NCBI GenBank assembly: GCA_045545735.1
Contig: JAZQBM010000007.1
Span: 112,295-176,294, forward strand
Length of the DNA: 64,000 bases
Direction: 5' to 3'
Source: Candidatus Fimenecus sp.
Lineage (GTDB): Bacteria; Bacillota; Clostridia; Oscillospirales; Acutalibacteraceae
Below, piece after piece: positions 6,333 through 19,165 of this stretch. The notes below the pieces were generated by a model. That model was given only the letters and a program-made list of their open reading frames with translations. It was not told the origin of the DNA and did no database searches. The first letter of the stretch is position 1. Each line of letters begins with the position of its first letter. The translations under genes were made by a program, and so were the position numbers.

Positions 6333-6351
6333 AATTCAAAAATAACGATAG

Positions 6352-6381
6352 GGCGGAAGCTTCGGTTTCCGCCTTATTTTT
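6352..6381 (+). terminator. Rho-independent terminator
   Basis: ggcggaagc-ttcg-gtttccgcc followed by ttattttta. Confidence 0.8.
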
Positions 6382-6551: not shown

Positions 6552-6581
6552 TTGACAAGTAGTACTGTAATAAGGTAAAAT
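6552..6581 (+). promoter_or_regulatory. Candidate promoter of the surface-protein operon
   Basis: TTGACA (6552-6557), an 18-nt spacer, then TAAAAT (6576-6581). It follows a long A/T-rich tract. Confidence 0.45.
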
Positions 6582-6640
6582 ATAATATCTATAATAGGAT
6601 TACTATTTATAGCCATCTTCATTTTTAGGAGGGTACTGTT

Positions 6641-7462
6641 TTGGCAGTATTTAACATTAAAAACGGCAATGACTACATAGAGTCATATTACAATAAAAAT
6701 ACGGGTTTTGAAATCGGTTGTTACACCGTAAAAGAAATGAAAGCCCTTTACCCCGACGGCGGTATTCGTGTTGTGGGGCAGGTGGCTTGCGGTAAAGACC
6801 AAATCGGCACAATCGTTTCAAATGAGATTGAAGAAATCGTCTACAAGCCAACTACTTCCGCAAGATACAAGACTGTTGGTTATGTCGAACTTGAATCAGG
6901 TTCGTTTATCGCAGTGAAAAAGGACAATCTTTTAGCAATAATTCTTTTGTTCCTTGTTGGTATTCTTGCTCTTGCAGGTTTGATTGCAGGTCTTTCATAT
7001 GTTATAAGCACAAGCGGTGAACCTGATGAAACCACAACAACACCAAATTATCTTGATGTTAATCAGCAACAGGGCTTAGGCGAACTCGATTTACCTGAAA
7101 AGGTTGAAGATATGGGTTCAAAGAGCGTTACAATGAATGGTATTGCTCAGATTAACTTTAAAGCAGGGCAGGTTGAGCAGAATTTCATTCTCTCAAACTC
7201 TGAAAAGAACAAAGATATCTGCTTTGTTGTATTCACAATTTATCTTGACAATAACGAAAACGGCGTAATTGATGCGGCTGACGAAACACTTTATCAGTCA
7301 GGACTTGTTCAACCGGGATATTCAGTTTCAAGATTTAACATTTCTCGTTCTTTAGAGGCAGGCGAATATAAAGCAATTGTTCATCAGCAACCATATTCAT
7401 TTGACCAGGCAAGAACACCACTCAACAACTTTGTTGTTAAAACAGACCTTATTGTAAAATAA
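6641..7462 (+). CDS. Bitopic membrane protein, unknown function (first gene of surface operon)
   Basis: TTG start 8 nt after AGGAGG. About 95 aa cytoplasmic N-domain, TM segment LLAIILLFLVGILALAGLIAGLSYVI, a Thr-rich linker, then an extracytoplasmic beta-rich domain of about 140 aa. Confidence 0.65.
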   Translation: MAVFNIKNGNDYIESYYNKNTGFEIGCYTVKEMKALYPDGGIRVVGQVACGKDQIGTIVSNEIEEIVYKPTTSARYKTVGYVELESGSFIAVKKDNLLAIILLFLVGILALAGLIAGLSYVISTSGEPDETTTTPNYLDVNQQQGLGELDLPEKVEDMGSKSVTMNGIAQINFKAGQVEQNFILSNSEKNKDICFVVFTIYLDNNENGVIDAADETLYQSGLVQPGYSVSRFNISRSLEAGEYKAIVHQQPYSFDQARTPLNNFVVKTDLIVK

Positions 7463-7501
7463 CTTACTTTATATAGATTAAAAACAGAAAGGAAGAAGAG
7501 C

Positions 7502-10500
7502 ATGAAGAAAAAATTATCTTCCAAAAAGTGCATAGCGCTCATATTGGCTGTTGTGATGATTATTACATCAGTTCCACTTATGATGGTCGGCGCAGTTACA
7601 ATAGGTGCTTACGACCCTGCACCATATTGGGGTGATGACCCTACAGATAAGTATGGTGCAATTAACACTAACTTTGTAGCTACACTTAATACTGATGGTA
7701 GTGTTGATATTTCATTCCCAAACGCTAATGCACAGAAAACATATAACGGTAGTGCTGATAAAACTATCGATAAGTATGTTTTCACACTTACAAAGTTGCA
7801 GGAGGACGGAACACGAAAAGAAATTTATTCTGAAGTGTTTACTGCTGCTCAGGTTGCAACAGGTACAGAGGGTGCTAAATATCCTAATAATATTTATTAC
7901 GGACCGGGCGGACTTGAATCACTTCCCGACTATGATGTGCAGTCCACATACGACGTAGCAATTATGGCAATAGATAGTGACGGTTGGTTCTCTGATAAAA
8001 TCCATACTCTTTTGACAGATACACCATATTACGACATCTCTGCAGACTTTTCACCAAATGAAACTTGGGTAGCCCGTGAAATGCTTCTTTTTGAGGGCGC
8101 GGGTAGTGCAGATATTAATGCAGAAGACCAAGGTAGCAGTACAACTGCTGACATTGACTACAAAATCTATTCGGGTTCGGCACTTGACACTAACGGTGCG
8201 TTTGCAGAAACAGGTTATGAAAAGAGCCAATCATACCGTTTCTGGATTAACTCAGCATATGACGGAACACCATATAGCGTGCAAACCACTTGGAGCCGTT
8301 CTCACTATAACTTTGAAAATGCAGAAGAAGCATGGTTCTATGTTGACTTTTCTCGTGTTGATTTTGCACAAGTAGCGTTTTCTTTGACAGCAAACGAAAA
8401 GAGATTTGTTCACTGGAAGAGTGGTAGTGAAGATAAGACTTGGTCAAGATACGGTGACCTTTTTTCTACAAAGTCAGTTGCTGGGGTAAATACAGGCGTT
8501 AAAGGTGATATTTACATTCAAAATGCTGATGGCCTTTGGGAAGAAACCACAATGACCGACGGTTATCTTACAGACCTTGCAGGTTATGAGGGATTTATCC
8601 GTATTCCAATTGAATACTTTGTATTACAGACAGACCAGTATATTAATGCAAGAAATACAGTAAGTACTGATTGGGATAAGAATGAGACAGGACTTACAAA
8701 TTATGCTAACTCGCTTCTTTTCCGTCAGGATAGCAGTAGTGGAATTATACTTGAACTTGAAGATGGCACACAAAGAACATCAACAGCTGTTACAATGACT
8801 TTTGATATAAATGACAGCACAGAGAATAAAGATGTATATCAAGTTTTAGTAAATCCAAAAGGCACGCCTGTTACAGATGCTTTAATTATCTATGACAGGT
8901 TTGAAAAGTTTCAAACAGGTGCACTTTTTTGGGAAGAAGAATATACACGTGGTACAGGTAAACAACTCCACACAGGAACAACTGTTACTGAAACAGCAAA
9001 CGCTGATGGTAAAATAACATATAAGATTAATGATGGCATAAAAGCTATTGAAGACCTTTGCTCTGCTGGTATTGAGGTTGCAAATTGGTCAGCAGACTCT
9101 GTTACTAAGAGTTTTTATATTGACCAGGTTATGTTCTGCCAGTGGGCAGAGGGTGCAACATTTAACGATGATGGTTCTGTTGCAACAACATCTTCAGTTA
9201 AATTCCCTGACGAAGGTGGCGATTTCGCAGGTGATTTAGGTAAAAAAATTGCAGGATATTATGACCGAACTGTTGAAGTTCCAAAGGCCGTTGCAAATTA
9301 CATTACAGAATATGTTGGTAAAACACCTTCTCTTGATGATGTTAATGCACTTGAAATGATTAATGAAATCATACTTACTTATCGCCAGTGTTTCCCAACA
9401 GTTTTATCAACAGATAATGATACAGCAACATTAGAAAAGGCAATTACTTATCTTAATACATTGGGTTATACAGATGCTTACAATAGATATGTAGCTGCAA
9501 AAACATTTATTGAAACATATATAAATCTGGGTGACACAGCAAGAAACTACAACGCAGTTATAGCTTTCGAATCAGGTGTTGAACTTTTACCTGACCCTGA
9601 ATTTGCCAATTATAATGACGAAGAACTTAAAGCTGAACTTGAACAGTTAATGGCTCTTTATAAATCTTTCAACTTGAGCCATTTCGAAATTCTTGGTGCT
9701 GAGGCAGAAAACAAGTTTACTGAACTTTATAGCATTATGATGGGTGAAGAGGTAAAGACTGGTTATTCAATTGGTGGTTACCCATATATTCCGTTTAATG
9801 ATTTTGAAAAGAATATTAGTGGTTATAATGCAAACTACTCACTTGGACAATTAAGTTTGCAATATTATGATGATTCGCCTAGAGTAGGAAACAAAGATTT
9901 AAGACCTACAGACGTGAACAACACAAAAAATCTAGTTACTTATGTTACTCCTGACATTATTCCACAGTCAGGACAGAACTGGATTGGTAATGCAAAAGCT
10001 GTTGGTTGGTCTGTTGCGGACTATCGTGCGACAGCAGATAATCTTTTGTCTGATTCCAATGAAATTTTTGATACGTCCGATTATTTTGGAAGAATGGACG
10101 CAGAAATTTCAAATAGTGGATTTGCAGGTTCACAGGGTGTGCAGATTAACCTTGATGGCGACATTACAACACTTGACGCTGATGATAATCCTAAATTTGC
10201 AACCGTTTCAACAACATATAAAGGTCAGAATGTAAACACTTGGACAGAACTACAAGGCCTTAATCTTGCGGCTCTTCAACTTACAGATACTTATGCTGAC
10301 GGAACAACTGCAAAAGATAATGAGCGTTACGGAACGACTTCAACAGGCGAACAGGTAACACCAAACTCGTTTGTTATGTATGTTGACTTCAGTGAAGTTA
10401 CAAATATAGCAATGAATATTAAGTTTATTCTTAATAACGGGTCAGGAACTGATGTAAACTGTTATTTCTGTGGTGGTAGTGAAACAGCAACACCAACAAT

Positions 10501-12844
10501 TTATGTTCTTGACGAAAACGGTGAATGGACAGATGTTCAGATTGCTGTTTCTGCAATTGATACTTCAAGTACATCTTTTGCTGCGGGCCTTTGTTCAATT
10601 GCTTCTGCGGGAACACCTCTTGAAGGTTATAAAGGATTTATCCGTATTCCACTTTCAATGTTCCGTATTCCAAAGCGTGACGGTTTAGAAGAAAACTATT
10701 TAATCCTTGAAAACAACCTTAATAATTATACAATTGCACAGGCAAAAGTTTCTTTCTGGGATTATGATACAGAAGATAAGAATATCGGTACAGAAATAAA
10801 CATTGACGCTATGGGCTTTACTTATGACCCTAACTGCGCAACCCGTATTCTTACAACAAGAGATGCAATCTTAAACCAGCTTAATAGCGACAATGGTCTT
10901 TCAACAACTGCAGGTACTAACATCAAGAATATGGACGAATATTTTGGTGTTAAGACAAACGACTCAGTTAATTTTGAAAAAATGGTTGCTGAACTTGACC
11001 CATATGAAGGCAAAGACGCTTTTGTAACTGCATACAATAATGCTAAAACAGCATATGATAAACTTTCCTTCTATCAAAAAGGTCTTGACGAAATTAAACA
11101 TAGTTATGATGATATTCTCATAGGAAAATATCGTGCTTTGGCTGATAATAATGGTGCAAATTACGAAACATTAATGGCTCAAGAGCCATGGGTTGCAAAA
11201 TATGCAACAGCAAGTGAGTTGTTGACAGACCTTAATGCACTTGATTCAAAAGCAACAAGTTTTGATATAACAAAAGACGAAAATGCACTCACAAAGCCTT
11301 ATAATACTGAAGATGGTACGATTACTTATACTGATTTAGGTATTGCAGATAAGGCGGCGGCAGAAGCTATAGTTGAAATGTATGAAAAAGGCTATCGCAG
11401 ATTGAGTGGTACTGAAAAAACAAATCTTTCGGCAGACGACCTTACAAAACTTGAGAATGCATATGCGGCAGCAAAACGATTACTTCTTCTTGAAGACTAT
11501 ATTACAGATATGAATAGTTTCAAGAATGAAATCATTCAGATTTATACTGTAGGAACTGCTGAACCGGACGTTAGAATGGTTTCTTATGCAAATCCTGACT
11601 TGCTTGAAGCTATTGACCATTACGAAGATATGAGCGTTTTCGCAAAGCAAATGCTCAGCACAACTAAGGATACAGCAAATGCTGGTTATCCTAATATGTA
11701 TGCAGCGGCTGAAGCAATCTACGATAACTCTCATACAATTACAATGTCAATTGGCACAGCAATTGATGGTGGTGTTCTCGTATTTGAAGAAAGAATGCAT
11801 ACTTGTGCAACAGATGTAGCAGAGAAAATTAGAACAAGAACAGTTCTTGATGATGCAACACTCAATGAAATTGAGTATTGTTTAGGTCAAACAGAAAGTT
11901 TCTTGCAGAGATATGCTCAGGTTGACGAAATCAACGTTGCATACCACGAACTTGCTGATTTACTTCCTGTTGCAGACATTGCATCAGTTGACAGTTCAAA
12001 TGCAGAACTCACAAAGATTACACTCAATAATGATTCAGCGGAAACAATGAAATGTACCGCGTACATTGATTTGAGTTATATCGCAACAAGACTTAACAGA
12101 AGCGTTGACCTTTATGCACAGTCAAGCCTTAAATGGACTCAGACAGGTGGTTCAACATACAACGCTTTTGAAGATTTGATGTATAACAGTGCTACGGCTG
12201 AAAGTCTTGCAGACTATCAAAATGCAGACGGAATAGTTACAGCCTTGGTTGGTTCTTATACTAACGGAAATTCAGCAAGTCTTGAAAAATATCCGTATGA
12301 AATCAGCGTTGATGCAACTGAGGCTGCAAAAGTGCCGACAGGTGCAACTTACACAGGCAAGGTTACATTCTATGCAGTTGATTCTGCTCTTGTTGCGGAA
12401 AAAACTGCTGATGGTACAGATGTTTCAACAGTACTTGCGGATGCAGAGAATGTTCTTGAAGTAATAGAAGTTGATGTTGAGTTCCAGTCAACAAACGGAA
12501 CAGACCCAATCATTTATGAGGTTGAAATCCCTGCAAAAGTCCAGGTTGCTTGGGATACTACCGATGCAGTAGATGTTTCATATTCAGTTGAAGCAACTCT
12601 TGGTAGCAACACACTTTCAGTAGGTGTAAGTGGAACTGATAAACTTATCAATGATGATACAAGAGTTACTTACGAATTAGCTTACTCAAAGGCTAATTTT
12701 GTCACGGAAACATTTACAGGCGACGTAGCAACTGGAACAAAACCAACCAATGCACCAAGCATTACAATTAAAGATTGGGATAGCGTTCCGGTTGGCGTAT
12801 ATAGTACACAGTTGACTTATACAGTCGACGTAACAAGTTCTTAA
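7502..12844 (+). CDS. Giant secreted protein (1780 aa), unknown function; C-terminal about 130 aa homologous to the downstream small paralogues
   Basis: Uninterrupted 5.3-kb ORF with RBS GGAAGAAGAG and signal peptide MKKKLSSKKCIALILAVVMIITSVPLMMVGA. Contains an internally duplicated module (motifs YVDFS.V and L.GY.GFIRIP at two places). Confidence 0.85.
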   Translation: MKKKLSSKKCIALILAVVMIITSVPLMMVGAVTIGAYDPAPYWGDDPTDKYGAINTNFVATLNTDGSVDISFPNANAQKTYNGSADKTIDKYVFTLTKLQEDGTRKEIYSEVFTAAQVATGTEGAKYPNNIYYGPGGLESLPDYDVQSTYDVAIMAIDSDGWFSDKIHTLLTDTPYYDISADFSPNETWVAREMLLFEGAGSADINAEDQGSSTTADIDYKIYSGSALDTNGAFAETGYEKSQSYRFWINSAYDGTPYSVQTTWSRSHYNFENAEEAWFYVDFSRVDFAQVAFSLTANEKRFVHWKSGSEDKTWSRYGDLFSTKSVAGVNTGVKGDIYIQNADGLWEETTMTDGYLTDLAGYEGFIRIPIEYFVLQTDQYINARNTVSTDWDKNETGLTNYANSLLFRQDSSSGIILELEDGTQRTSTAVTMTFDINDSTENKDVYQVLVNPKGTPVTDALIIYDRFEKFQTGALFWEEEYTRGTGKQLHTGTTVTETANADGKITYKINDGIKAIEDLCSAGIEVANWSADSVTKSFYIDQVMFCQWAEGATFNDDGSVATTSSVKFPDEGGDFAGDLGKKIAGYYDRTVEVPKAVANYITEYVGKTPSLDDVNALEMINEIILTYRQCFPTVLSTDNDTATLEKAITYLNTLGYTDAYNRYVAAKTFIETYINLGDTARNYNAVIAFESGVELLPDPEFANYNDEELKAELEQLMALYKSFNLSHFEILGAEAENKFTELYSIMMGEEVKTGYSIGGYPYIPFNDFEKNISGYNANYSLGQLSLQYYDDSPRVGNKDLRPTDVNNTKNLVTYVTPDIIPQSGQNWIGNAKAVGWSVADYRATADNLLSDSNEIFDTSDYFGRMDAEISNSGFAGSQGVQINLDGDITTLDADDNPKFATVSTTYKGQNVNTWTELQGLNLAALQLTDTYADGTTAKDNERYGTTSTGEQVTPNSFVMYVDFSEVTNIAMNIKFILNNGSGTDVNCYFCGGSETATPTIYVLDENGEWTDVQIAVSAIDTSSTSFAAGLCSIASAGTPLEGYKGFIRIPLSMFRIPKRDGLEENYLILENNLNNYTIAQAKVSFWDYDTEDKNIGTEINIDAMGFTYDPNCATRILTTRDAILNQLNSDNGLSTTAGTNIKNMDEYFGVKTNDSVNFEKMVAELDPYEGKDAFVTAYNNAKTAYDKLSFYQKGLDEIKHSYDDILIGKYRALADNNGANYETLMAQEPWVAKYATASELLTDLNALDSKATSFDITKDENALTKPYNTEDGTITYTDLGIADKAAAEAIVEMYEKGYRRLSGTEKTNLSADDLTKLENAYAAAKRLLLLEDYITDMNSFKNEIIQIYTVGTAEPDVRMVSYANPDLLEAIDHYEDMSVFAKQMLSTTKDTANAGYPNMYAAAEAIYDNSHTITMSIGTAIDGGVLVFEERMHTCATDVAEKIRTRTVLDDATLNEIEYCLGQTESFLQRYAQVDEINVAYHELADLLPVADIASVDSSNAELTKITLNNDSAETMKCTAYIDLSYIATRLNRSVDLYAQSSLKWTQTGGSTYNAFEDLMYNSATAESLADYQNADGIVTALVGSYTNGNSASLEKYPYEISVDATEAAKVPTGATYTGKVTFYAVDSALVAEKTADGTDVSTVLADAENVLEVIEVDVEFQSTNGTDPIIYEVEIPAKVQVAWDTTDAVDVSYSVEATLGSNTLSVGVSGTDKLINDDTRVTYELAYSKANFVTETFTGDVATGTKPTNAPSITIKDWDSVPVGVYSTQLTYTVDVTSS

Positions 12845-12864
12845 TAAGGGAAGGAGATGGTTAA

Positions 12865-13314
12865 ATGAAAAAAATCTTTTCGGCAGGCTTGGCAGTTGTA
12901 ATGTTTATTCTTTGCATTACACCCGTATTCGCTGAAAGTCAGTCAATGGAAATTTCCACAAAGGCTGACAGAGCAGAATACGAATTGTCTTACCCTGCAG
13001 ACATTGAAATTCCATGGCAGACAACAGCTATGGGAATCGGTGAAGTAAAAGCTGAAAAAATGCTTATTGAACCGGGTAAAATGGTAGCGGTTTCAATTTC
13101 TTCACATAACGATTTTAACTTGGTAAACGAAGCAGACAGCACAAAAGCTATTGCATACAGTTTATTAAGTGAAGACATCTCTTTCTTCCCTGGTGATTAC
13201 GGTGAAAGCTTCACTCTATCAGTAGAGGTTGAAGATAATGAATGGCTTCACGCCGCAAGCGGTAAACACAGTGATATTTTAACATTCACTGCTGAATACA
13301 CTGACGCGGTTTAA
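12865..13314 (+). CDS. Small secreted paralogue 1 (most divergent)
   Basis: Signal peptide ...ITPVFA/E. Shares YELSYPADIEIPW ... HSDILTFTAEY with the family. Confidence 0.8.
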   Translation: MKKIFSAGLAVVMFILCITPVFAESQSMEISTKADRAEYELSYPADIEIPWQTTAMGIGEVKAEKMLIEPGKMVAVSISSHNDFNLVNEADSTKAIAYSLLSEDISFFPGDYGESFTLSVEVEDNEWLHAASGKHSDILTFTAEYTDAV

Positions 13315-13352
13315 ATAGTATTTTTAATCTTTATATAAAGGAGAAAACAAGC

Positions 13353-13856
13353 ATGAAAAAGATTTTATCACTTGCAATGGCACTTGTTATGATAATGGCT
13401 GTTATGGTTCCTGCTTTTGCAGTAGAACTTAATGCAAATCCTGATAGTGCTGATGTAATTATCAACACAGACACATTAAAAGATACTGACGGCGACGGTA
13501 AGGGCGACACAGATGCAGAAGAATACACAGTTACAATTCCTGCAGATACAACAATCCCTTGGGGCCAGGAAACAACCGACGTTTCTTATAAAGTTGAATC
13601 TCACCTCAAGAGAAACGGTAATGTTGTAGTTATGGTTACAGGTGCCGGAGTTATGAAAACAACTGACGGTGCTTACGAAATTCCTTACACACTTACGGGT
13701 GAGGGCGTAGCATTCAGAGCAGAGGGTGTTCCTACAATTTACCCTGCAGCAACAAAAGCAGTTACAGTTACAATTTCTGCAGATGATTGGAATTCAGCAG
13801 TTGTTGAAGAATATAAAGATATTCTCACATATACAGCAGAAATTGAAAGAGCATGA
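13353..13856 (+). CDS. Small secreted paralogue 2
   Basis: Signal peptide MKKILSLAMALVMIMAVMVPAFA. Family motifs YTVTIPADTTIPW and EYKDILTYTAE. Confidence 0.85.
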   Translation: MKKILSLAMALVMIMAVMVPAFAVELNANPDSADVIINTDTLKDTDGDGKGDTDAEEYTVTIPADTTIPWGQETTDVSYKVESHLKRNGNVVVMVTGAGVMKTTDGAYEIPYTLTGEGVAFRAEGVPTIYPAATKAVTVTISADDWNSAVVEEYKDILTYTAEIERA

Positions 13857-13896
13857 GCTTAATTTATAAATTATTCTGAAAAGGAGACATATAATT

Positions 13897-14382
13897 ATGA
13901 AAAAAGTTATTTCTTTAGTAATGGCACTCGTTATGACGATGGCTGTTATGGTTCCTGCTTTTGCGGCTGAACTTAATGCGGCAACACCATCAGGTGAAGT
14001 AATCGTTAAAACAAGCACAGAACTTGAAGGTGGCGGAAGTGCTGAACGTTATGTGGTTACTATTCCGGCTAGTCCAACAACAATGGCTTGGGGTACAGCT
14101 TCAAAAGACCTTGTTTATTCAGTTGAATCACATCTTGCTTGGGGCAAGGCAGTTTCAGTTTCAGTTTCAGGTAACGGCATTATGACATACAAGCCTGACG
14201 CAAATAATACACTTGAACTTGTATACAAACTTGGTGGCGAAACAGCATTTACAGCTGACACTCCTACAATCTATCCTGCAGCAGATAAAACAATTACAGT
14301 TGCAGTTTCAGCAGACGCATGGAATGGTGCAGTAATCGGTGAGTATTCAGATACTCTTACATTTACAGCAAGCGTTGCTTAA
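13897..14382 (+). CDS. Small secreted paralogue 3
   Basis: Signal peptide MKKVISLVMALVMTMAVMVPAFA. Family motifs YVVTIPASPTTMAW and EYSDTLTFTASVA. Confidence 0.85.
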   Translation: MKKVISLVMALVMTMAVMVPAFAAELNAATPSGEVIVKTSTELEGGGSAERYVVTIPASPTTMAWGTASKDLVYSVESHLAWGKAVSVSVSGNGIMTYKPDANNTLELVYKLGGETAFTADTPTIYPAADKTITVAVSADAWNGAVIGEYSDTLTFTASVA

Positions 14383-14410
14383 TTTGATTACGAAATAAGG
14401 AGAATAAATT

Positions 14411-14890
14411 ATGAAAAAGATTTTATCACTTGCTTTGGCACTTGTTATGATGATGGCAATCTGCGTTCCTGCATTTGCAGGTACACTTGATGCATCAACA
14501 CCATCAAGCGACGTTCCGATAAAAACAGATATTAGTTCAATTACAACTGATGGTACTTATTCAGTTACAATCCCTGCAACAATGGATATCAAATGGAATG
14601 CAACAAAAACAGATTTTAACTACTCAGTAACAAGCCACCTTAAAGCAGGCAAAGCAGTAAATGTTACAGTTGCACAGAAAAACGCAGCAATGGTTGCAGC
14701 TGATGCAAATAATACTAGTACTATTGAATATTCACTTACAGGTACACTTAACGCAACAACAAAGAATCCTGTAGTTACAAACGCAGGTTTTGACTTCTCA
14801 GTTATAATTGACCAGTCAGAATTCGATGAAGCAGCAATTGCTGAGTATTCAGACAAAGTTACATTTACAGCAACAGTTGTAAATGCATAA
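14411..14890 (+). CDS. Small secreted paralogue 4
   Basis: Signal peptide MKKILSLALALVMMMAICVPAFA. Family motifs YSVTIPATMDIKW and EYSDKVTFTATV. Confidence 0.85.
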   Translation: MKKILSLALALVMMMAICVPAFAGTLDASTPSSDVPIKTDISSITTDGTYSVTIPATMDIKWNATKTDFNYSVTSHLKAGKAVNVTVAQKNAAMVAADANNTSTIEYSLTGTLNATTKNPVVTNAGFDFSVIIDQSEFDEAAIAEYSDKVTFTATVVNA

Positions 14891-14908
14891 GAAAGGGAGT
14901 ATTAAATA

Positions 14909-15388
14909 ATGAAAAAAGTTATTTCTATTGTTCTTGCACTTGTAATGATGATGGTAATTTGCGTTCCCGCATTTGCAGGTGAAATTAAAGAAACAGGTGC
15001 ACAATCAGGCACATCAACAGTTAAAACAGATACAAGCACAATGGGTTCAGGTACTTACACAGTAACTTACCCTGCTGAAATTTCTATTCCTTGGAATCAG
15101 ACAAAAAATGAAACTTACACAGTTTCAACACAGTTGCTCGTAGGTAAGCAGGTAACAGTTGCTGTTGCAGACGCAACAACTACAACTCACACAGGTGCTA
15201 TGACAGCTACTGGTACAACAGATACACTTGAATACACAGTTTCAGGTGATACAACTGTTGTTTACACAGGTGCCATGAATGAAACAGAAACACTTACATT
15301 TACAGTTACTGACTGGAACAAGACAATTGCTGAATATACAGGTACTGTTACATTTACAGCAACACTTGCTGATGTTACAACAGTATAA
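14909..15388 (+). CDS. Small secreted paralogue 5
   Basis: Signal peptide MKKVISIVLALVMMMVICVPAFA. Family motifs YTVTYPAEISIPW and EYTGTVTFTATL. Confidence 0.85.
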   Translation: MKKVISIVLALVMMMVICVPAFAGEIKETGAQSGTSTVKTDTSTMGSGTYTVTYPAEISIPWNQTKNETYTVSTQLLVGKQVTVAVADATTTTHTGAMTATGTTDTLEYTVSGDTTVVYTGAMNETETLTFTVTDWNKTIAEYTGTVTFTATLADVTTV

Positions 15389-15407
15389 TTTAAAGGGGTA
15401 ATTTACA

Positions 15408-15914
15408 ATGAAAAAGATTATTTCTATCGCACTTGCTCTTGTTATGATGATGGCAATTTGCGTTCCTGCATTTGCAGAAGTAGTAAATACTGATGGGGTA
15501 GCAGGTAATACAACAAATGTTGAAACATCATACACAGAAGCAACTGACACATCATACACAGTTACAATCCCTGCAACAATTTCAATTCCTTGGGGCAATA
15601 CAAACCCACAGAATGCAACATATACAGTTAAATCTCAACTTCTTATTGGTGCAAAACTTAATGTTTCAGCAACAGCAAATAACAATGGTACAATGACAGC
15701 TACAGGCACAAACGACGAACTTGAATTTACAGTTACAGGTGGAGATGTAGTAACATTTGATGCAGTTAATGTTGCAACAACAACAGCACCTGGTGTAACA
15801 GACGGCGAAAACGTAAAGGTTGCTATCTCTTCTTTTGACGGTAAAGCTGTTGGCGAATACACAGGTACAATCACATACACAGTTGAGTATGTTGCACCTA
15901 CAACTACTCCGTAA
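15408..15914 (+). CDS. Small secreted paralogue 6
   Basis: Signal peptide MKKIISIALALVMMMAICVPAFA. Family motifs YTVTIPATISIPW and EYTGTITYTVEY. Confidence 0.85.
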   Translation: MKKIISIALALVMMMAICVPAFAEVVNTDGVAGNTTNVETSYTEATDTSYTVTIPATISIPWGNTNPQNATYTVKSQLLIGAKLNVSATANNNGTMTATGTNDELEFTVTGGDVVTFDAVNVATTTAPGVTDGENVKVAISSFDGKAVGEYTGTITYTVEYVAPTTTP

Positions 15915-15951
15915 TTATTTATTTTCGAAATAGTTAAGGAGGTGGATTTCA

Positions 15952-17952
15952 TTGAAAAAAGCAATTAGTATCATTGTGGCTTTAGCTATGGTGCTTGTTA
16001 TGGCAGTGCCTTCGTTTGCCGGAAACACTGTTATTTCAACATCAGTGCCTTATGAGCATTCAGTTACCGTTACTTATAATGACGGCGGTTATGTGCTTGT
16101 AAATGGTAAGCTTTGCCCTGACGGTACACAATTTAATATCAACAGATTTGGTGAAATCGACCTTGGCGTAATTTACGAAAACGGCTATCACCTTGAAAGC
16201 GTTGAAGTAAATGGCGTTGACGTTACAGAACAATTTGTCAGTGGCAATCTTAAAATTGCAAATATTATTGATGACGTCTTTGTTGAAGTTACTTTTGAAA
16301 AATGTTCTTCTGACCCTGACGATAAGTGCGGCAAGGTTGATATGGAAGGTACAGTTTATCTTGGCGACAAAGAACTCGTTGGTGCTGAGCTCAGTTTTGA
16401 TTTTGGTAGTGTAACGGCAGAAACTGATAAAGACGGCAGATATTTTGTTGAAGATATTTTTGACGGAAAACATATTGTTACGATTTCAAAGGATGGCGAA
16501 GTTCTTTCTAATACATCTTTTGTTATTGAAAGAGCAGATGTTAAAGAGGTAACTCTTACAACAGCACCTGACGGAACACAGGTTGTACTTGTTCCTGTTG
16601 ATGCAGAAAAGATTTATCTTGATTTTAACATTGCTGATAACGATAAAAATGGAATTCCGGATAAAGACCCTGATGATACAGACCCTGGTGACCCTGATGT
16701 TCCTGAATTTAAAGACCCTGATGGTGACCCCGACATCCCAAATCCGAACGTAACTCCGGACCCTGATGATGACGGTGACGGAATTCTTGATAAGGATGAC
16801 CCTGACCACCCAAATCGTGATACAGATGACGACGGTTTACCGGACGCAATTGACCCTGATGACGATAACGACGGCCTTGATGACGACGAGGATTCAGATG
16901 ACGACGGCGACGGAATCCCTGACAAAGATGACCCAAATCATCCTGACCGCGACACAGATGGTGATGGTGTTCCTGACAGACGTGACCCTGACGATGATGA
17001 CGACGGTATTCTTGATACAGACGATACTGACGACGACAACGACGGCACTCCTGATAAGGACGACCCTGACCACCCTGACCGCGACACAGACGGTGACGGT
17101 ATTCCGGACAGCGTTGACGATGATGATGACAACGATGGTCTTCCTGACGGAAACGAGGATTTAAACAATATTCCTGACCCTGATGATGACGGCGACGGTA
17201 TTCCCGATAAAGATGACACTGACCATCCTGACCGCGACACAGACGATGACGGCGTTCCCGACAGAGTCGATGATGATGACGATAATGATGGTGTAAAGGA
17301 TGACGACGATTCAGATGATGATAACGACGGCACTCCTGACAAGGACGACCCGGACCACCCTGACCGCGATACAGATGGTGACGGTAAACCTGACAGAATC
17401 GACGACGATGACGACAATGACGGCATTGATGACGATAGGGACTCAGATGACGACGACGATGGAATTCCTGATGTAAATGACCCCGATAGTCCTGAACGCG
17501 ACACGGATGGTGACGGTACACCTGATAGCGAAGACGATGATGACGACAACGACGGTCTTCCTGACGGACCACTTTATGATGGTGACGAGGATGATGACGG
17601 CGATGATGATAAAAAGGATACAGACGGCGACGGTATTCTTGATAAGGATGACGACGATGACGATAATGATGGTATCCCTGATTCAAAAGACCCGGATTCA
17701 GATGGTGACGGACATATTGATGATTATGACGGAACACCTGACGGTGACGATGACAACGATGGCGTTATAATCACAATCGGCGGACCTAAAAAGGATGTTC
17801 CTATCATTCCTATTCCCGATACTTTCGTAGAGTTCTTTGAGAATCCGATTATAATAGGTTCCTTAATGGGATTAAGCTTGTTCTTCCTTATCCTTATTAT
17901 CTTCAAACGCAAAAAGGATGAAGAAGACGAACGCGAAATCATTGTTGAATAA
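15952..17952 (+). CDS. Membrane-anchored surface protein with thrombospondin-type-3-like Asp-rich calcium-binding repeats
   Basis: TTG start after AAGGAGGTGG and a family-like signal peptide MKKAISIIVALAMVLVMAVPSFA. Two N-terminal beta domains, the second resembling a carboxypeptidase-regulatory-like domain (DKDGRYFVEDIFDGKHIVTISKDGEV). About 380 aa of DxDxDGxxD repeats. C-terminal TM segment IIIGSLMGLSLFFLILIIF followed by KRKKDEEDE. Confidence 0.85.
   Translation: MKKAISIIVALAMVLVMAVPSFAGNTVISTSVPYEHSVTVTYNDGGYVLVNGKLCPDGTQFNINRFGEIDLGVIYENGYHLESVEVNGVDVTEQFVSGNLKIANIIDDVFVEVTFEKCSSDPDDKCGKVDMEGTVYLGDKELVGAELSFDFGSVTAETDKDGRYFVEDIFDGKHIVTISKDGEVLSNTSFVIERADVKEVTLTTAPDGTQVVLVPVDAEKIYLDFNIADNDKNGIPDKDPDDTDPGDPDVPEFKDPDGDPDIPNPNVTPDPDDDGDGILDKDDPDHPNRDTDDDGLPDAIDPDDDNDGLDDDEDSDDDGDGIPDKDDPNHPDRDTDGDGVPDRRDPDDDDDGILDTDDTDDDNDGTPDKDDPDHPDRDTDGDGIPDSVDDDDDNDGLPDGNEDLNNIPDPDDDGDGIPDKDDTDHPDRDTDDDGVPDRVDDDDDNDGVKDDDDSDDDNDGTPDKDDPDHPDRDTDGDGKPDRIDDDDDNDGIDDDRDSDDDDDGIPDVNDPDSPERDTDGDGTPDSEDDDDDNDGLPDGPLYDGDEDDDGDDDKKDTDGDGILDKDDDDDDNDGIPDSKDPDSDGDGHIDDYDGTPDGDDDNDGVIITIGGPKKDVPIIPIPDTFVEFFENPIIIGSLMGLSLFFLILIIFKRKKDEEDEREIIVE
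16630..17765 (+). repeat. Coding tandem repeats (super-repeat about 130-150 nt, six copies containing HP[DN]RDTD[GD]DG)
   Basis: Near-identical blocks such as gaccaccctgaccgcgacacagacggtgacgg recur at about 16936, 17068, 17221 and 17354. GAY-rich codons generate long spurious antisense ORFs. Confidence 0.9.
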
Positions 17953-17969
17953 AGATTTGACCAAAATTA

Positions 17970-17996
17970 AAAGCCACTCAATCGAGTGGCTTTTTT
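17970..17996 (+). terminator. Rho-independent terminator of the surface operon
   Basis: aaagccactc-aatc-gagtggcttt plus TTTT. Confidence 0.85.
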
Positions 17997-18120: not shown

Positions 18121-18153
18121 TAAAAACAACCCATCTAAATAAATAGATGGGTT
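18121..18153 (-). terminator. Rho-independent terminator of the M15 peptidase gene
   Basis: aacccatcta / tagatgggtt stem followed on the - strand by gttttta. Confidence 0.65.
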
Positions 18154-18158
18154 AAATT

Positions 18159-18983
18159 TTATACTGCTTTCAAATATTCTTCCAAACAAAGATTATTCGA
18201 TTTCATTTCGTTTGCAACATCAATGCCAACATAACGCCAGTGCCAAGGCTGATAAATTATTCCCGTAATTTCCGTCTTATCTTCGGGATAACGAAGAATA
18301 AATCCATATTTATGAGCATTATTAACAAGCCATTTATATTCGTCAGTTGCCGAGAATCCTGCACTTGCACTTATAATATCAACGCTGAGCCCTGCACCGT
18401 TTTCACTACAGCCTGCAGGCTCAACTCTTTTTTCTGCATTAGTTTTTGCTTCGTCTTCTGTCATTCCTTGCAAAACAAAAGCCTGTACTTTGTTTTCATA
18501 GTTTGTTTGTTGACGTGAATAACTACAGTATGCTGAATATGGTGTCAATACATAACCTTGTTTCAATGCATCTGCATACATAAGTTTGTATGCATCAGAA
18601 ACTCTTGTGTCTGCAGTGACTGAACTACCGTCAACAACGGGGGCAAGTGTGGGACTGTACGTTTTACCTAATGGATATTTTTTGCTGATAAGGGTTATTG
18701 CCCAGTTTTCACTATTAAGGACTTCAACAGGGTTGTAATTGTCCCATTTAACAGGCGGTTTTGTTGTAGTTTCAGGTAAAGTTGTGCTCTCTTCCTCCGT
18801 AGTGGATTCTTCCGGTGTAGGGGGAAGTGTGGTGCTTTCCTCGGTTGTGGTTTCTGTTGTAATTTCAACTTCGTTGTAGTTACCGTCACGACAGAAAACT
18901 GCAAATAAAACCAACAGCAAACCAAGAATAGCAATCAAGGCAATAAGCAAGGCAAATCTTATTTTTAACTGTCTTTTTTTCAT
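18159..18983 (-). CDS. VanY/LdcB-type (M15B) D,D- or L,D-carboxypeptidase homologue, membrane-anchored
   Basis: KWLVNNAHKYGFILRYPEDKTEITGIIYQPWHWRYVG is typical of the family. N-terminal TM anchor and Thr/Glu linker. ATG 18983 (MKKRQ, RBS AAGGA) is preferred over 19019. Confidence 0.8.
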   Translation of the reverse strand: MKKRQLKIRFALLIALIAILGLLLVLFAVFCRDGNYNEVEITTETTTEESTTLPPTPEESTTEEESTTLPETTTKPPVKWDNYNPVEVLNSENWAITLISKKYPLGKTYSPTLAPVVDGSSVTADTRVSDAYKLMYADALKQGYVLTPYSAYCSYSRQQTNYENKVQAFVLQGMTEDEAKTNAEKRVEPAGCSENGAGLSVDIISASAGFSATDEYKWLVNNAHKYGFILRYPEDKTEITGIIYQPWHWRYVGIDVANEMKSNNLCLEEYLKAV

Positions 18984-19165
18984 ATTAATTTCCTTAATTT
19001 TATAAAAATCTCTTTTCAACAGTATATAGTTTATTCTTTTTTTTGCGTAATGTCAATATTTGCAATTTTTTTCAAAATAGTAGTGACTTAATAAAAAAAG
19101 TGTGCTAAAATAATTATAATTATATTATTGTGGCAAAATATTTTGCCTTTTTGGAGGTAATAGGT

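Follow-up and report, generated by a model that had tools for sequence, protein, structure and literature searches.

A conserved, unannotated operon of predicted exported proteins with a pilin-like domain in gut Oscillospirales

We analysed a 64,000-nucleotide (nt) stretch of the Candidatus Fimenecus sp. contig JAZQBM010000007.1 (positions 112,295 to 176,294 of the forward strand, GenBank assembly GCA_045545735.1), hereafter the window, which carries an operon of nine genes for proteins predicted to be exported. The genes are called G1 to G9 in 5'-3' order, and coordinates are positions in the window unless another record is named. They encode a bitopic membrane protein (G1), a secreted giant (G2), six small subunits (G3 to G8) that share a domain with the C-terminus of the giant, and a membrane-anchored stalk protein (G9). 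The operon is a real, conserved and unannotated system, whose products are predicted from their sequences to lie at the cell surface. The same genes occur in the same order in many other species, and structure models of the shared domain support a pilin-like immunoglobulin (Ig) fold that is regular only with an extra strand beside its C-terminal strand.

Results

The gene set and gene order are conserved across species

We scanned one genome per species with G3 orthologues as queries, and surveyed the loci by open reading frame (ORF) calling and hidden Markov model (HMM) searches. The scan returned 57 other species-level genomes, mostly Candidatus Fimenecus and other Oscillospirales metagenome-assembled genomes (MAGs), together with one Eubacterium sp. 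CAG:180. Nearly all complete loci have the order G1, giant, G3-type gene, 2–11 more small genes and G9-type gene, and the proteins range from 262–304 amino acids (aa) for G1 and 1365–1982 aa for the giant to 293–669 aa for the G9 type. Each small gene was assigned to its nearest paralogue in the window. The G3 type was the first small gene in 57 of the 58 loci and the G8 type the last in 52, the usual order being 3-4-5-6-7-8 with duplications in the middle. Therefore, the paralogues represent specialised, ordered subfamilies, not recent random copies.

The operon stays between Band_7 and VanY genes in the closer relatives, while distant loci contain the same operon in other genomic contexts. 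We favour a functional unit because the set and order are co-inherited while the flanks are conserved only in close relatives. The original prediction, which was made from the letters of the window, took the nine genes to belong together as a surface assembly system, and the co-occurrence of their homologues in these genomes, despite the differing flanks, agrees with it.

The small proteins and the giant share a widespread domain

The six small proteins and residues ~1650–1780 of the giant align over their full length, with invariant Y, P-A, W and T.T positions. The original prediction of six small paralogues, and of a giant that shares their domain, is thereby upheld, and the terminal motif that it described, (E)Y..[LVI]T[FY]T[AV], is real, reading (E)Y.D.LTFTA in the alignment. 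G3 is the most conserved paralogue (sequence …SGKHSDILTFTAEYTDAV) and the C-terminus of G8 reads …ITYTVEYVAPTTTP. An N-terminal strand precedes the core and contains a Thr that is conserved in 118 of 129 diverse members, and the linker between strand and core measures 5–39 aa in every subunit except one. The most conserved segments of the domain are the terminal strands, not a surface patch.

The linker of G4 holds a DTDGDGKGDTD loop. One such DTDGDGxGDTD loop is found in G4-type linkers (aa ~40–56 in G4; orthologues such as P0002, P0130 and P0152), and it is the same Ca-binding-type motif as that repeated 19 times in the stalk of G9.

A profile of the domain matched 651 clusters at 90% identity, all unnamed or annotated as hypothetical, from Clostridia, Ruminococcaceae and Oscillospiraceae MAGs, and 906 clusters in a 50%-identity library. 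The family comprises small forms of 150–200 aa, giants of 1226–1866 aa with the domain at the extreme C-terminus, and mid-size fusions in which the domain lies C-terminal to BspA-type leucine-rich repeats (LRRs) or to a ubiquitin domain. In Ruminococcus, the domain is also found N-terminal to beta-helix-like passengers. Three of the LRR fusions (P0126, P0141 and P0169; 462–473 aa) place BspA-type LRR_5 repeats ahead of the pilin-like domain, in parallel with LRR-WxL proteins such as ElrA. The ubiquitin fusions, listed in Table 1, are secreted proteins that combine a full ubiquitin domain (PF00240, E 2e-26) with a signal peptide and the pilin-like domain. Judged by their domain content, they look like a bacterial, surface-displayed ubiquitin fold.

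Searches for known relatives of the domain were negative. Pfam searches with the 129 diverse small members showed no WxL, DUF916, pilin or adhesin family among the 25 most frequent families (E<=10), and a PDB sequence search with the small-family profile gave only signal-peptide or noise matches. An exact-sequence look-up of G3 returned no record, and we found no description of the pilin-like domain family in the literature. Six copies of the small domain are encoded by MT836423.1 (L067), an unannotated 10.5 kb record from human faeces filed as 'UNVERIFIED: Bacteriophage sp.', which is most likely a bacterial fragment of the operon filed as phage. A phage origin of the family was considered and rejected: viral fold matches are weaker and generic, and the sole 'phage' record is this unverified faecal scaffold.

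Structure models suggest a pilin-like fold completed by an added strand

AlphaFold2 predicted mature G5, from an alignment of 62 sequences, as a confident beta-sandwich (pLDDT 93.5, pTM 0.77). In this model the conserved N-terminal VIVKT does not form a regular strand and the C-terminal strand is six residues long. A Foldseek search of the model against the PDB gave no matches at E<=1e-3. The best matches were chaperone-usher pilins, namely FimG with its donor strand, CfaB, the CsuE pilin domain, SafA, the PapG pilin domain and PapA, while the TasA fibre 8aur was weak (E 0.12, probability 0.41) and cohesins ranked low (probability 0.14).

We then modelled a complemented construct, in which the G6 core, without its own N-terminal segment, was fused at its C-terminus to the first 25 mature residues of G7. 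AlphaFold2 predicted this construct with a pTM of 0.82. The appended G7 segment, which had no alignment coverage, forms a 13-residue strand (TGAQSGTSTVKTD, pLDDT ~82), and the C-terminal strand extends to 13 residues, versus six in the unfused G5 model. The number of PDB matches at E<=1e-3 rose from 0 for G5 to 102 for the complemented model. The top matches were dsc-EcpA (4e-7), CfaE, CooA (TM-score 0.61), CfaB fusions, self-complemented CsuA/B and PsaA, with pilin matches spanning E 4e-7 to 4e-5 and TM-scores of 0.5–0.6. The TasA fibre 8aur was absent from the top 50 PDB matches, and viral structures matched less well and in a generic manner. The models thus support an Ig fold of the pilin-like kind, which needs an extra strand beside the C-terminal strand to become regular. 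The natural in-frame read-through from G6 to G7 contains two stop codons, and in the alignment of the G6–G7 fusion nearly all homologues fall on the first half.

The giant carries the domain at its C-terminus

The remaining ~1650 aa of G2 have no detectable relatives outside the C-terminal domain. Among 57 giants of related loci, the domain ends 0–9 residues from the C-terminus, and 19 diverged giant orthologues are collinearly conserved. Pfam searches with these 19 giants found no WxL, DUF916, pilin or adhesin family and no cohesin, dockerin or carbohydrate-binding module (CBM) family above threshold, and PDB sequence searches with the giant and with a giant profile returned signal-peptide or noise matches only. 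The giants mostly lack the K-T type N-terminal motif of the small subunits, the HMM match beginning at profile positions 21–28 in 37 of the 57. Residues ~357–369 (8570–8600) and ~1037–1049 (10610–10640) of G2 have a common GY(E/K)GFIRIP(I/L) motif (BLASTP E 1e-5 over 45 aa), which suggests internal duplication of a putative beta-rich module in an otherwise 'dark' 1650-aa region.

Two membrane proteins flank the set

G1 has no signal peptide and one internal transmembrane (TM) segment. It consists of a cytoplasmic N-domain (aa 1–95), the TM segment (aa ~98–123, nt ~6932–7009), a Thr/Pro linker and an ectodomain of ~105 aa that ends in LNNFVVKTDLIVK. A profile of the ectodomain matched 1082 clusters at 90% identity, including short forms of 181–199 aa in Ruminococcus. 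No Pfam relatives were found with 14 ectodomains and no PDB relatives with a profile sequence search, and hhalign scored the ectodomain as unrelated to the small family (probability 0.5%). The cytoplasmic N-domain (6641–6925) ranks with the best-conserved regions of the operon in Fimenecus-type loci and is missing from the Ruminococcus forms; no relatives of it were found. It may couple assembly to something intracellular.

G9 comprises, in order, a signal peptide, a conserved N-terminal segment NTVISTSVPYEH, two beta-domains, an Asp-rich stalk, a TM segment (nt ~17845–17904) preceded by a conserved motif, and a KRKKDEEDE tail. The stalk contains 19 DxDxDGxxD motifs (nt ~16657–17810), with 46% Asp between residues 236 and 620 and DNA repeats of 132–417 bp. 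The Asp-rich, Ca-binding-type repeats and C-terminal TM anchor of the original prediction are therefore both present. Orthologues of G9 differ chiefly in stalk length, most having 293–400 aa, and the second beta-domain gave sub-threshold prealbumin/CarboxypepD_reg-like matches in seven of nine orthologues. Pfam searches with these nine returned no WxL, pilin or adhesin family. Several long ORFs overlap G9 (16486–17770), of 342, 203, 107 and 103 aa on the − strand and of 132 and 97 aa in the other + frames. They are of low complexity, rich in His/Arg/Tyr, Ser or Met/Thr, and look like by-products of the GAT/GAC-rich Asp repeats, not genes.

The G9 N-terminus (NTVISTSVP) and the G1 C-terminus (VVKTDLIV) were considered as donor motifs and scanned with a position-weight matrix (position-specific scoring matrix, PSSM) built from 118 aligned N-terminal segments of small subunits. 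The scan did not support either, and their assignment as donors is now speculation.

Compact loci in Ruminococcus define a core

A tblastn search of plasmids gave a match in the megaplasmid pRUMAL01 of the cultured Ruminococcus albus 7 (NC_014824.1, ~386.6–393.0 kb; WP_013483626–WP_013483634; L062 9567–15945). This locus starts with a short G1-like protein of 183 aa (TM plus ectodomain) and contains several small-domain proteins, including a ubiquitin fusion and a beta-helix-like fusion, as well as a G3-like subunit. Its G9-like anchor of 188 aa has a signal peptide, ATIGTEVPETH, one domain, a Ser-rich linker, a TM segment and KDEEE. The compact locus has no giant, and its cluster is broken up by a gene with a PI-PLC domain and by a gene fragment of 65 aa. 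Three more neighbourhoods, one in R. albus SY3 and two on Ruminococcus-type metagenome contigs, likewise start with a G1-like gene, after which come small-domain proteins and a G3-like gene; the G9-like anchor is present in two of them (three of four with R. albus 7). One minimal Ruminococcus locus has a ubiquitin fusion as its sole component besides the G1-like and G3-like genes. Thus, the conserved core is made up of the G1 ectodomain, proteins that bear the domain and a G3-type subunit, and a G9-type anchor usually accompanies them.

In two Ruminococcus-type loci (L065 7608–9705; L066 292–2389), the genes immediately upstream of the G1-like one encode a LytS-type histidine kinase (PF06580) and a response regulator, which may regulate the system there. 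On another Ruminococcus-type metagenome contig, a classical cluster of signal peptidase, sortase and SpaA-domain pilin genes (L064 16858–20549) lies ~5 kb from the minimal locus; therefore, both kinds of surface system coexist in one genome.

Operon layout and signals in the window

The nine same-strand ORFs (Table 1) are separated, from G1 to G9, by 39, 20, 38, 40, 28, 18, 19 and 37 nt, and a GGAG-type Shine-Dalgarno sequence precedes each start codon. G2 to G9 begin with MKK, a hydrophobic stretch and A-x-A, as in ordinary signal peptides (MKK…AFA type); the family profile even matches signal peptides retained on recombinant Fab chains in the PDB. All nine products are acidic (isoelectric point, pI, 4.1–4.7). 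Pfam and NCBIfam searches with the nine proteins gave no match that reached threshold, and the W.L and LP.TG motifs are absent from all nine. These results match the original prediction of closely spaced genes, each with its own ribosome-binding site, whose products all carry a signal peptide or TM anchor and which form an uncharacterised exported system of a clostridial host with no recognisable machinery.

The same prediction placed the operon between a promoter-like site and a strong terminator, with no hairpin inside. The terminator stands, and the terminator-like sites within the operon are all weak, with 5–9 pairs. The sigma-70-like promoter site, in the intergenic gap 3' of the upstream terminator, is only a candidate and weak evidence alone, because such sites occur in the region at chance frequency (41 found versus 40.4 expected from shuffled sequence). 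The closing hairpin and a second at 18127–18154, which both read as terminators on either strand, separate the operon from a convergent VanY-like gene (18159–19019, − strand).

Table 1. Positions of the operon genes and signals in the window, and examples of ubiquitin fusions in other records.
Feature	Position	Strand	Size	Description
G1	6641-7462	+	273 aa	bitopic membrane protein
G2	7502-12844	+	1780 aa	secreted giant
Giant C-terminal pilin-like domain	12455-12841	+	aa ~1652-1780	located by alignments and hmmsearch
G3	12865-13314	+	149 aa	small subunit
G4	13353-13856	+	167 aa	small subunit
G5	13897-14382	+	161 aa	small subunit
G6	14411-14890	+	159 aa	small subunit
G7	14909-15388	+	159 aa	small subunit
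G8	15408-15914	+	168 aa	small subunit
G9	15952-17952	+	666 aa	membrane-anchored stalk protein
Upstream terminator	6347-6378		14-bp stem	ends the preceding NfeD/Band_7 operon
Sigma-70-like promoter candidate	6552-6581	+		TTGACA, 18 nt, TAAAAT; 11/12 positions match; upstream of G1
Intrinsic terminator closing the operon	17969-17994	+	11-bp stem	5 GC pairs, T-run; reads as a terminator on the − strand too
Ubiquitin fusion P0227				
Ubiquitin fusion in L062	14107-14847			WP_013483628
Ubiquitin fusion in L063	14630-15370			
Ubiquitin fusion in L064	10568-11293			

Discussion

A proposed non-covalent assembly

We propose that the operon encodes an ordered, sortase-independent, non-covalent cell-surface fibre or complex, composed of pilin-like subunits, a giant adhesin and a membrane tether. 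For this mechanism in full we see the chances as evenly balanced, and we are more confident that the products form a co-functioning surface complex. Ordinary signal peptides would direct all parts except G1 to export by Sec. As specialised, ordered subunits of pilin-like Ig fold, the small proteins G3 to G8 would join each other, and the C-terminal domain of the giant, by beta-strand complementation. The conserved N-terminal strand (h-x-[IV]-x-T), carried on its variable linker, would pair with the C-terminal strand of a neighbour (Y.DTLTFT), and the resulting chain would have a polarity. The giant would be the displayed adhesin or effector. G9 would tether the assembly through its C-terminal TM helix, and its acidic stalk, which probably binds Ca, could reach across the wall. 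G1 would be a required partner held at the membrane, serving either as a second anchor or as an assembly or chaperone factor. We favour strand complementation because of the conserved N-terminal Thr, the variable linker and the fit of the complemented model.

Several observations weigh against the proposed mechanism. PapD-like chaperone and MSP Ig domains score similarly to pilins in the searches with the models, and the strand comparison used different paralogues (G5 versus G6 with G7). AlphaFold2 may also place a beta-prone tail of any kind against an exposed edge strand, and TM-scores of 0.5–0.6 show a common fold, not homology. The median best PSSM scores were 4.4 bits for the G9 N-terminus and 3.4 bits for the G1 C-terminus, against 13.4 for small subunits and 2.5 for background; being near background, they do not show that G9 or G1 donates a strand. 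Finally, the giants and the Ruminococcus subunits have an upstream strand only 3–5 residues before the first core strand, which could pair in cis or, in the giants, either in cis or in trans.

Relation to known fibres

Chaperone-usher pili provide the best structural matches, with the alternate or class 5 (CFA/I CfaB/CfaE and CS1 CooA), EcpA and archaic Csu systems among them. As in these pili, the models suggest an Ig-like subunit whose fold becomes regular once a strand is added beside its C-terminal strand, and not before. The C-terminal strand carries a conserved motif, and the putative adhesin has a C-terminal pilin-type domain in the company of several ordered minor subunits. Unlike them, the hosts are presumably monoderm, with no periplasm or outer membrane, and membrane anchors would replace the usher. 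No PapD-like chaperone or usher was matched in the operon by Pfam or NCBIfam, and no sequence similarity to chaperone-usher pilins was found.

By analogy, the closest mechanistic precedent in single-membrane cells for the proposed assembly is the TasA superfamily, together with archaeal filaments. In this superfamily and in the chaperone-free filaments (Bacillus subtilis TasA/TapA, archaeal threads, AbpA/AbpX and cannulae), Sec-exported subunits polymerise outside a single membrane. For fibrils of the TasA superfamily, anchor proteins from the same clusters are predicted to attach by donor-strand complementation (bioRxiv 10.64898/2026.01.04.697558), and some chaperone-free donor-strand filaments involve calcium (bioRxiv 10.64898/2026.01.04.697558, 10.1101/2024.12.30.630787). 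In contrast to TasA, the assembly proposed here would be heteropolymeric, ordered and giant-bearing, and the fold match to TasA is weak. No TasA/camelysin (Peptidase_M73) match is among the Pfam families listed for the nine proteins and the 129 members, and no gene for a SipW-type peptidase was found in the operon.

Sortase pili resemble the proposal in being Gram-positive surface fibres with an adhesin, minor subunits and a base. The operon contains no sortase, LPXTG, pilin motif or E-box, and covalent assembly is not indicated. For type IV pili, the signal peptides are ordinary and not of the prepilin type, and the operon has no ATPase or peptidase gene. Family and motif searches hence agree with the original prediction, which saw neither sortase-type nor prepilin motifs and no ATPase.

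On a further-reaching view, the operon would encode pili of a new class, assembled in monoderm Clostridia as ordered heteropolymers by donor-strand exchange and lacking any sequence relationship to chaperone-usher pilins, TasA or WxL. A 'dark' giant adhesin would sit on a pilin-like shaft, with G1 as chaperone or usher and the Ca-binding stalk of G9 as base. We offer this view tentatively and lean against it.

Alternative explanations

The operon logic recalls that of WxL/Csc clusters, which are defined by small proteins made of the shared domain alone, a large one that carries it C-terminally, and a partner in which two beta-domains lie between a signal peptide and a TM helix (PMC9772566, PMC10599100). 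Both are single operons of exported proteins with no dedicated enzyme, both attach the domain to adhesin-like passengers, LRRs among them, and G9 has the layout of the partner, with its two beta-domains (beta-sandwich domains) and C-terminal TM helix. In AlphaFold2 models of WxL-WxLIP pairs, a strand from the membrane partner completes the WxL beta-sandwich (PMC10599100), and by analogy the same kind of strand contact may be made here. The likeness to WxL loci drawn in the original prediction therefore extends to all three kinds of component, but homology could not be shown. The WxL domain has two conserved W-x-L motifs and PF13731, whereas the operon has no W-x-L motifs. PF13731 was not reported for the nine proteins (E<=1), nor among the 25 most frequent families of the 129 members (E<=10), and G9 with eight orthologues gave no match to DUF916 or DUF3324 at E<=10. 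WxL-named entries were also missing from the top 50 PDB matches of either model. The hosts of WxL/Csc are Lactobacillales and Bacillales (Bacilli), while the host here belongs to the Clostridia, and the loci have 3–12 ordered paralogues where WxL/Csc has 1–2. The bitopic G1 is an addition, the stalk is acidic and rich in repeats, and there is no LPXTG partner.

These parallels raise the alternative of a non-polymeric complex, in which the domain binds peptidoglycan or a wall polymer, G9, as the analogue of WxLIP, holds the proteins one-to-one, and no fibre forms. A single inserted strand would perhaps link G9, and the small paralogues would perhaps be alternative platforms. Besides the architecture, this account is favoured by the length of most G9 orthologues (293–400 aa versus 337–365 aa for WxLIP), by the diverse passengers of the domain, and by the PSSM test, which did not support a chain ending in G9. 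It is opposed by the lack of a sequence link to WxL, DUF916 or DUF3324, by the fold and the strand-completion result, which point to pilins, and by the fact that no wall-binding motif was found. Moreover, a role as wall platforms would not readily account for six to twelve small paralogues per locus that are ordered and orthologous. We consider such a non-polymeric complex unlikely.

The domain could instead be a retention or sorting module, like SLH or CWB2, with the small paralogues as independent, non-interacting proteins, for example antigenically varied decoys or binding proteins. Its position at the extreme C-terminus of unrelated passengers and the acidity of all the products would fit such a module. 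The strictly conserved order of the subfamilies and the constant co-inheritance of G1 and G9 would not, nor would the Ruminococcus members with the domain N-terminal to passengers or the conservation of terminal strands over a surface patch, and we regard this explanation as quite improbable. A cohesin/dockerin-type or nutrient-capture scaffold, with the small proteins as cohesin-like or carbohydrate-binding modules that organise enzymes or capture substrate, is very improbable: the hosts are fibre-degrading Oscillospirales, a dockerin-repeat protein lies just 3' of the R. albus locus and the giant has two weakly similar GY.GFIRIP modules, but no cohesin, dockerin or CBM match reached threshold in the nine proteins or the 19 giants, and cohesins rank low in Foldseek.

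Significance

The known surface fibres of Gram-positive bacteria are sortase pili, type IV pili, TasA-type fibres and spore appendages, and WxL clusters are mechanistically unclear. The locus described here defines large families without any annotation, in gut Oscillospirales that are abundant and mostly uncultured. Should the subunits polymerise by strand complementation, as in the assembly that we propose, monoderm gut commensals would have a new means of displaying very large adhesins, and WxL-type systems would gain a mechanistic template. The domain would then also serve as a modular handle for display, as LRR, ubiquitin and beta-helix passengers are already attached to it. With the compact locus of the cultured Ruminococcus albus 7, the idea can be tested directly.

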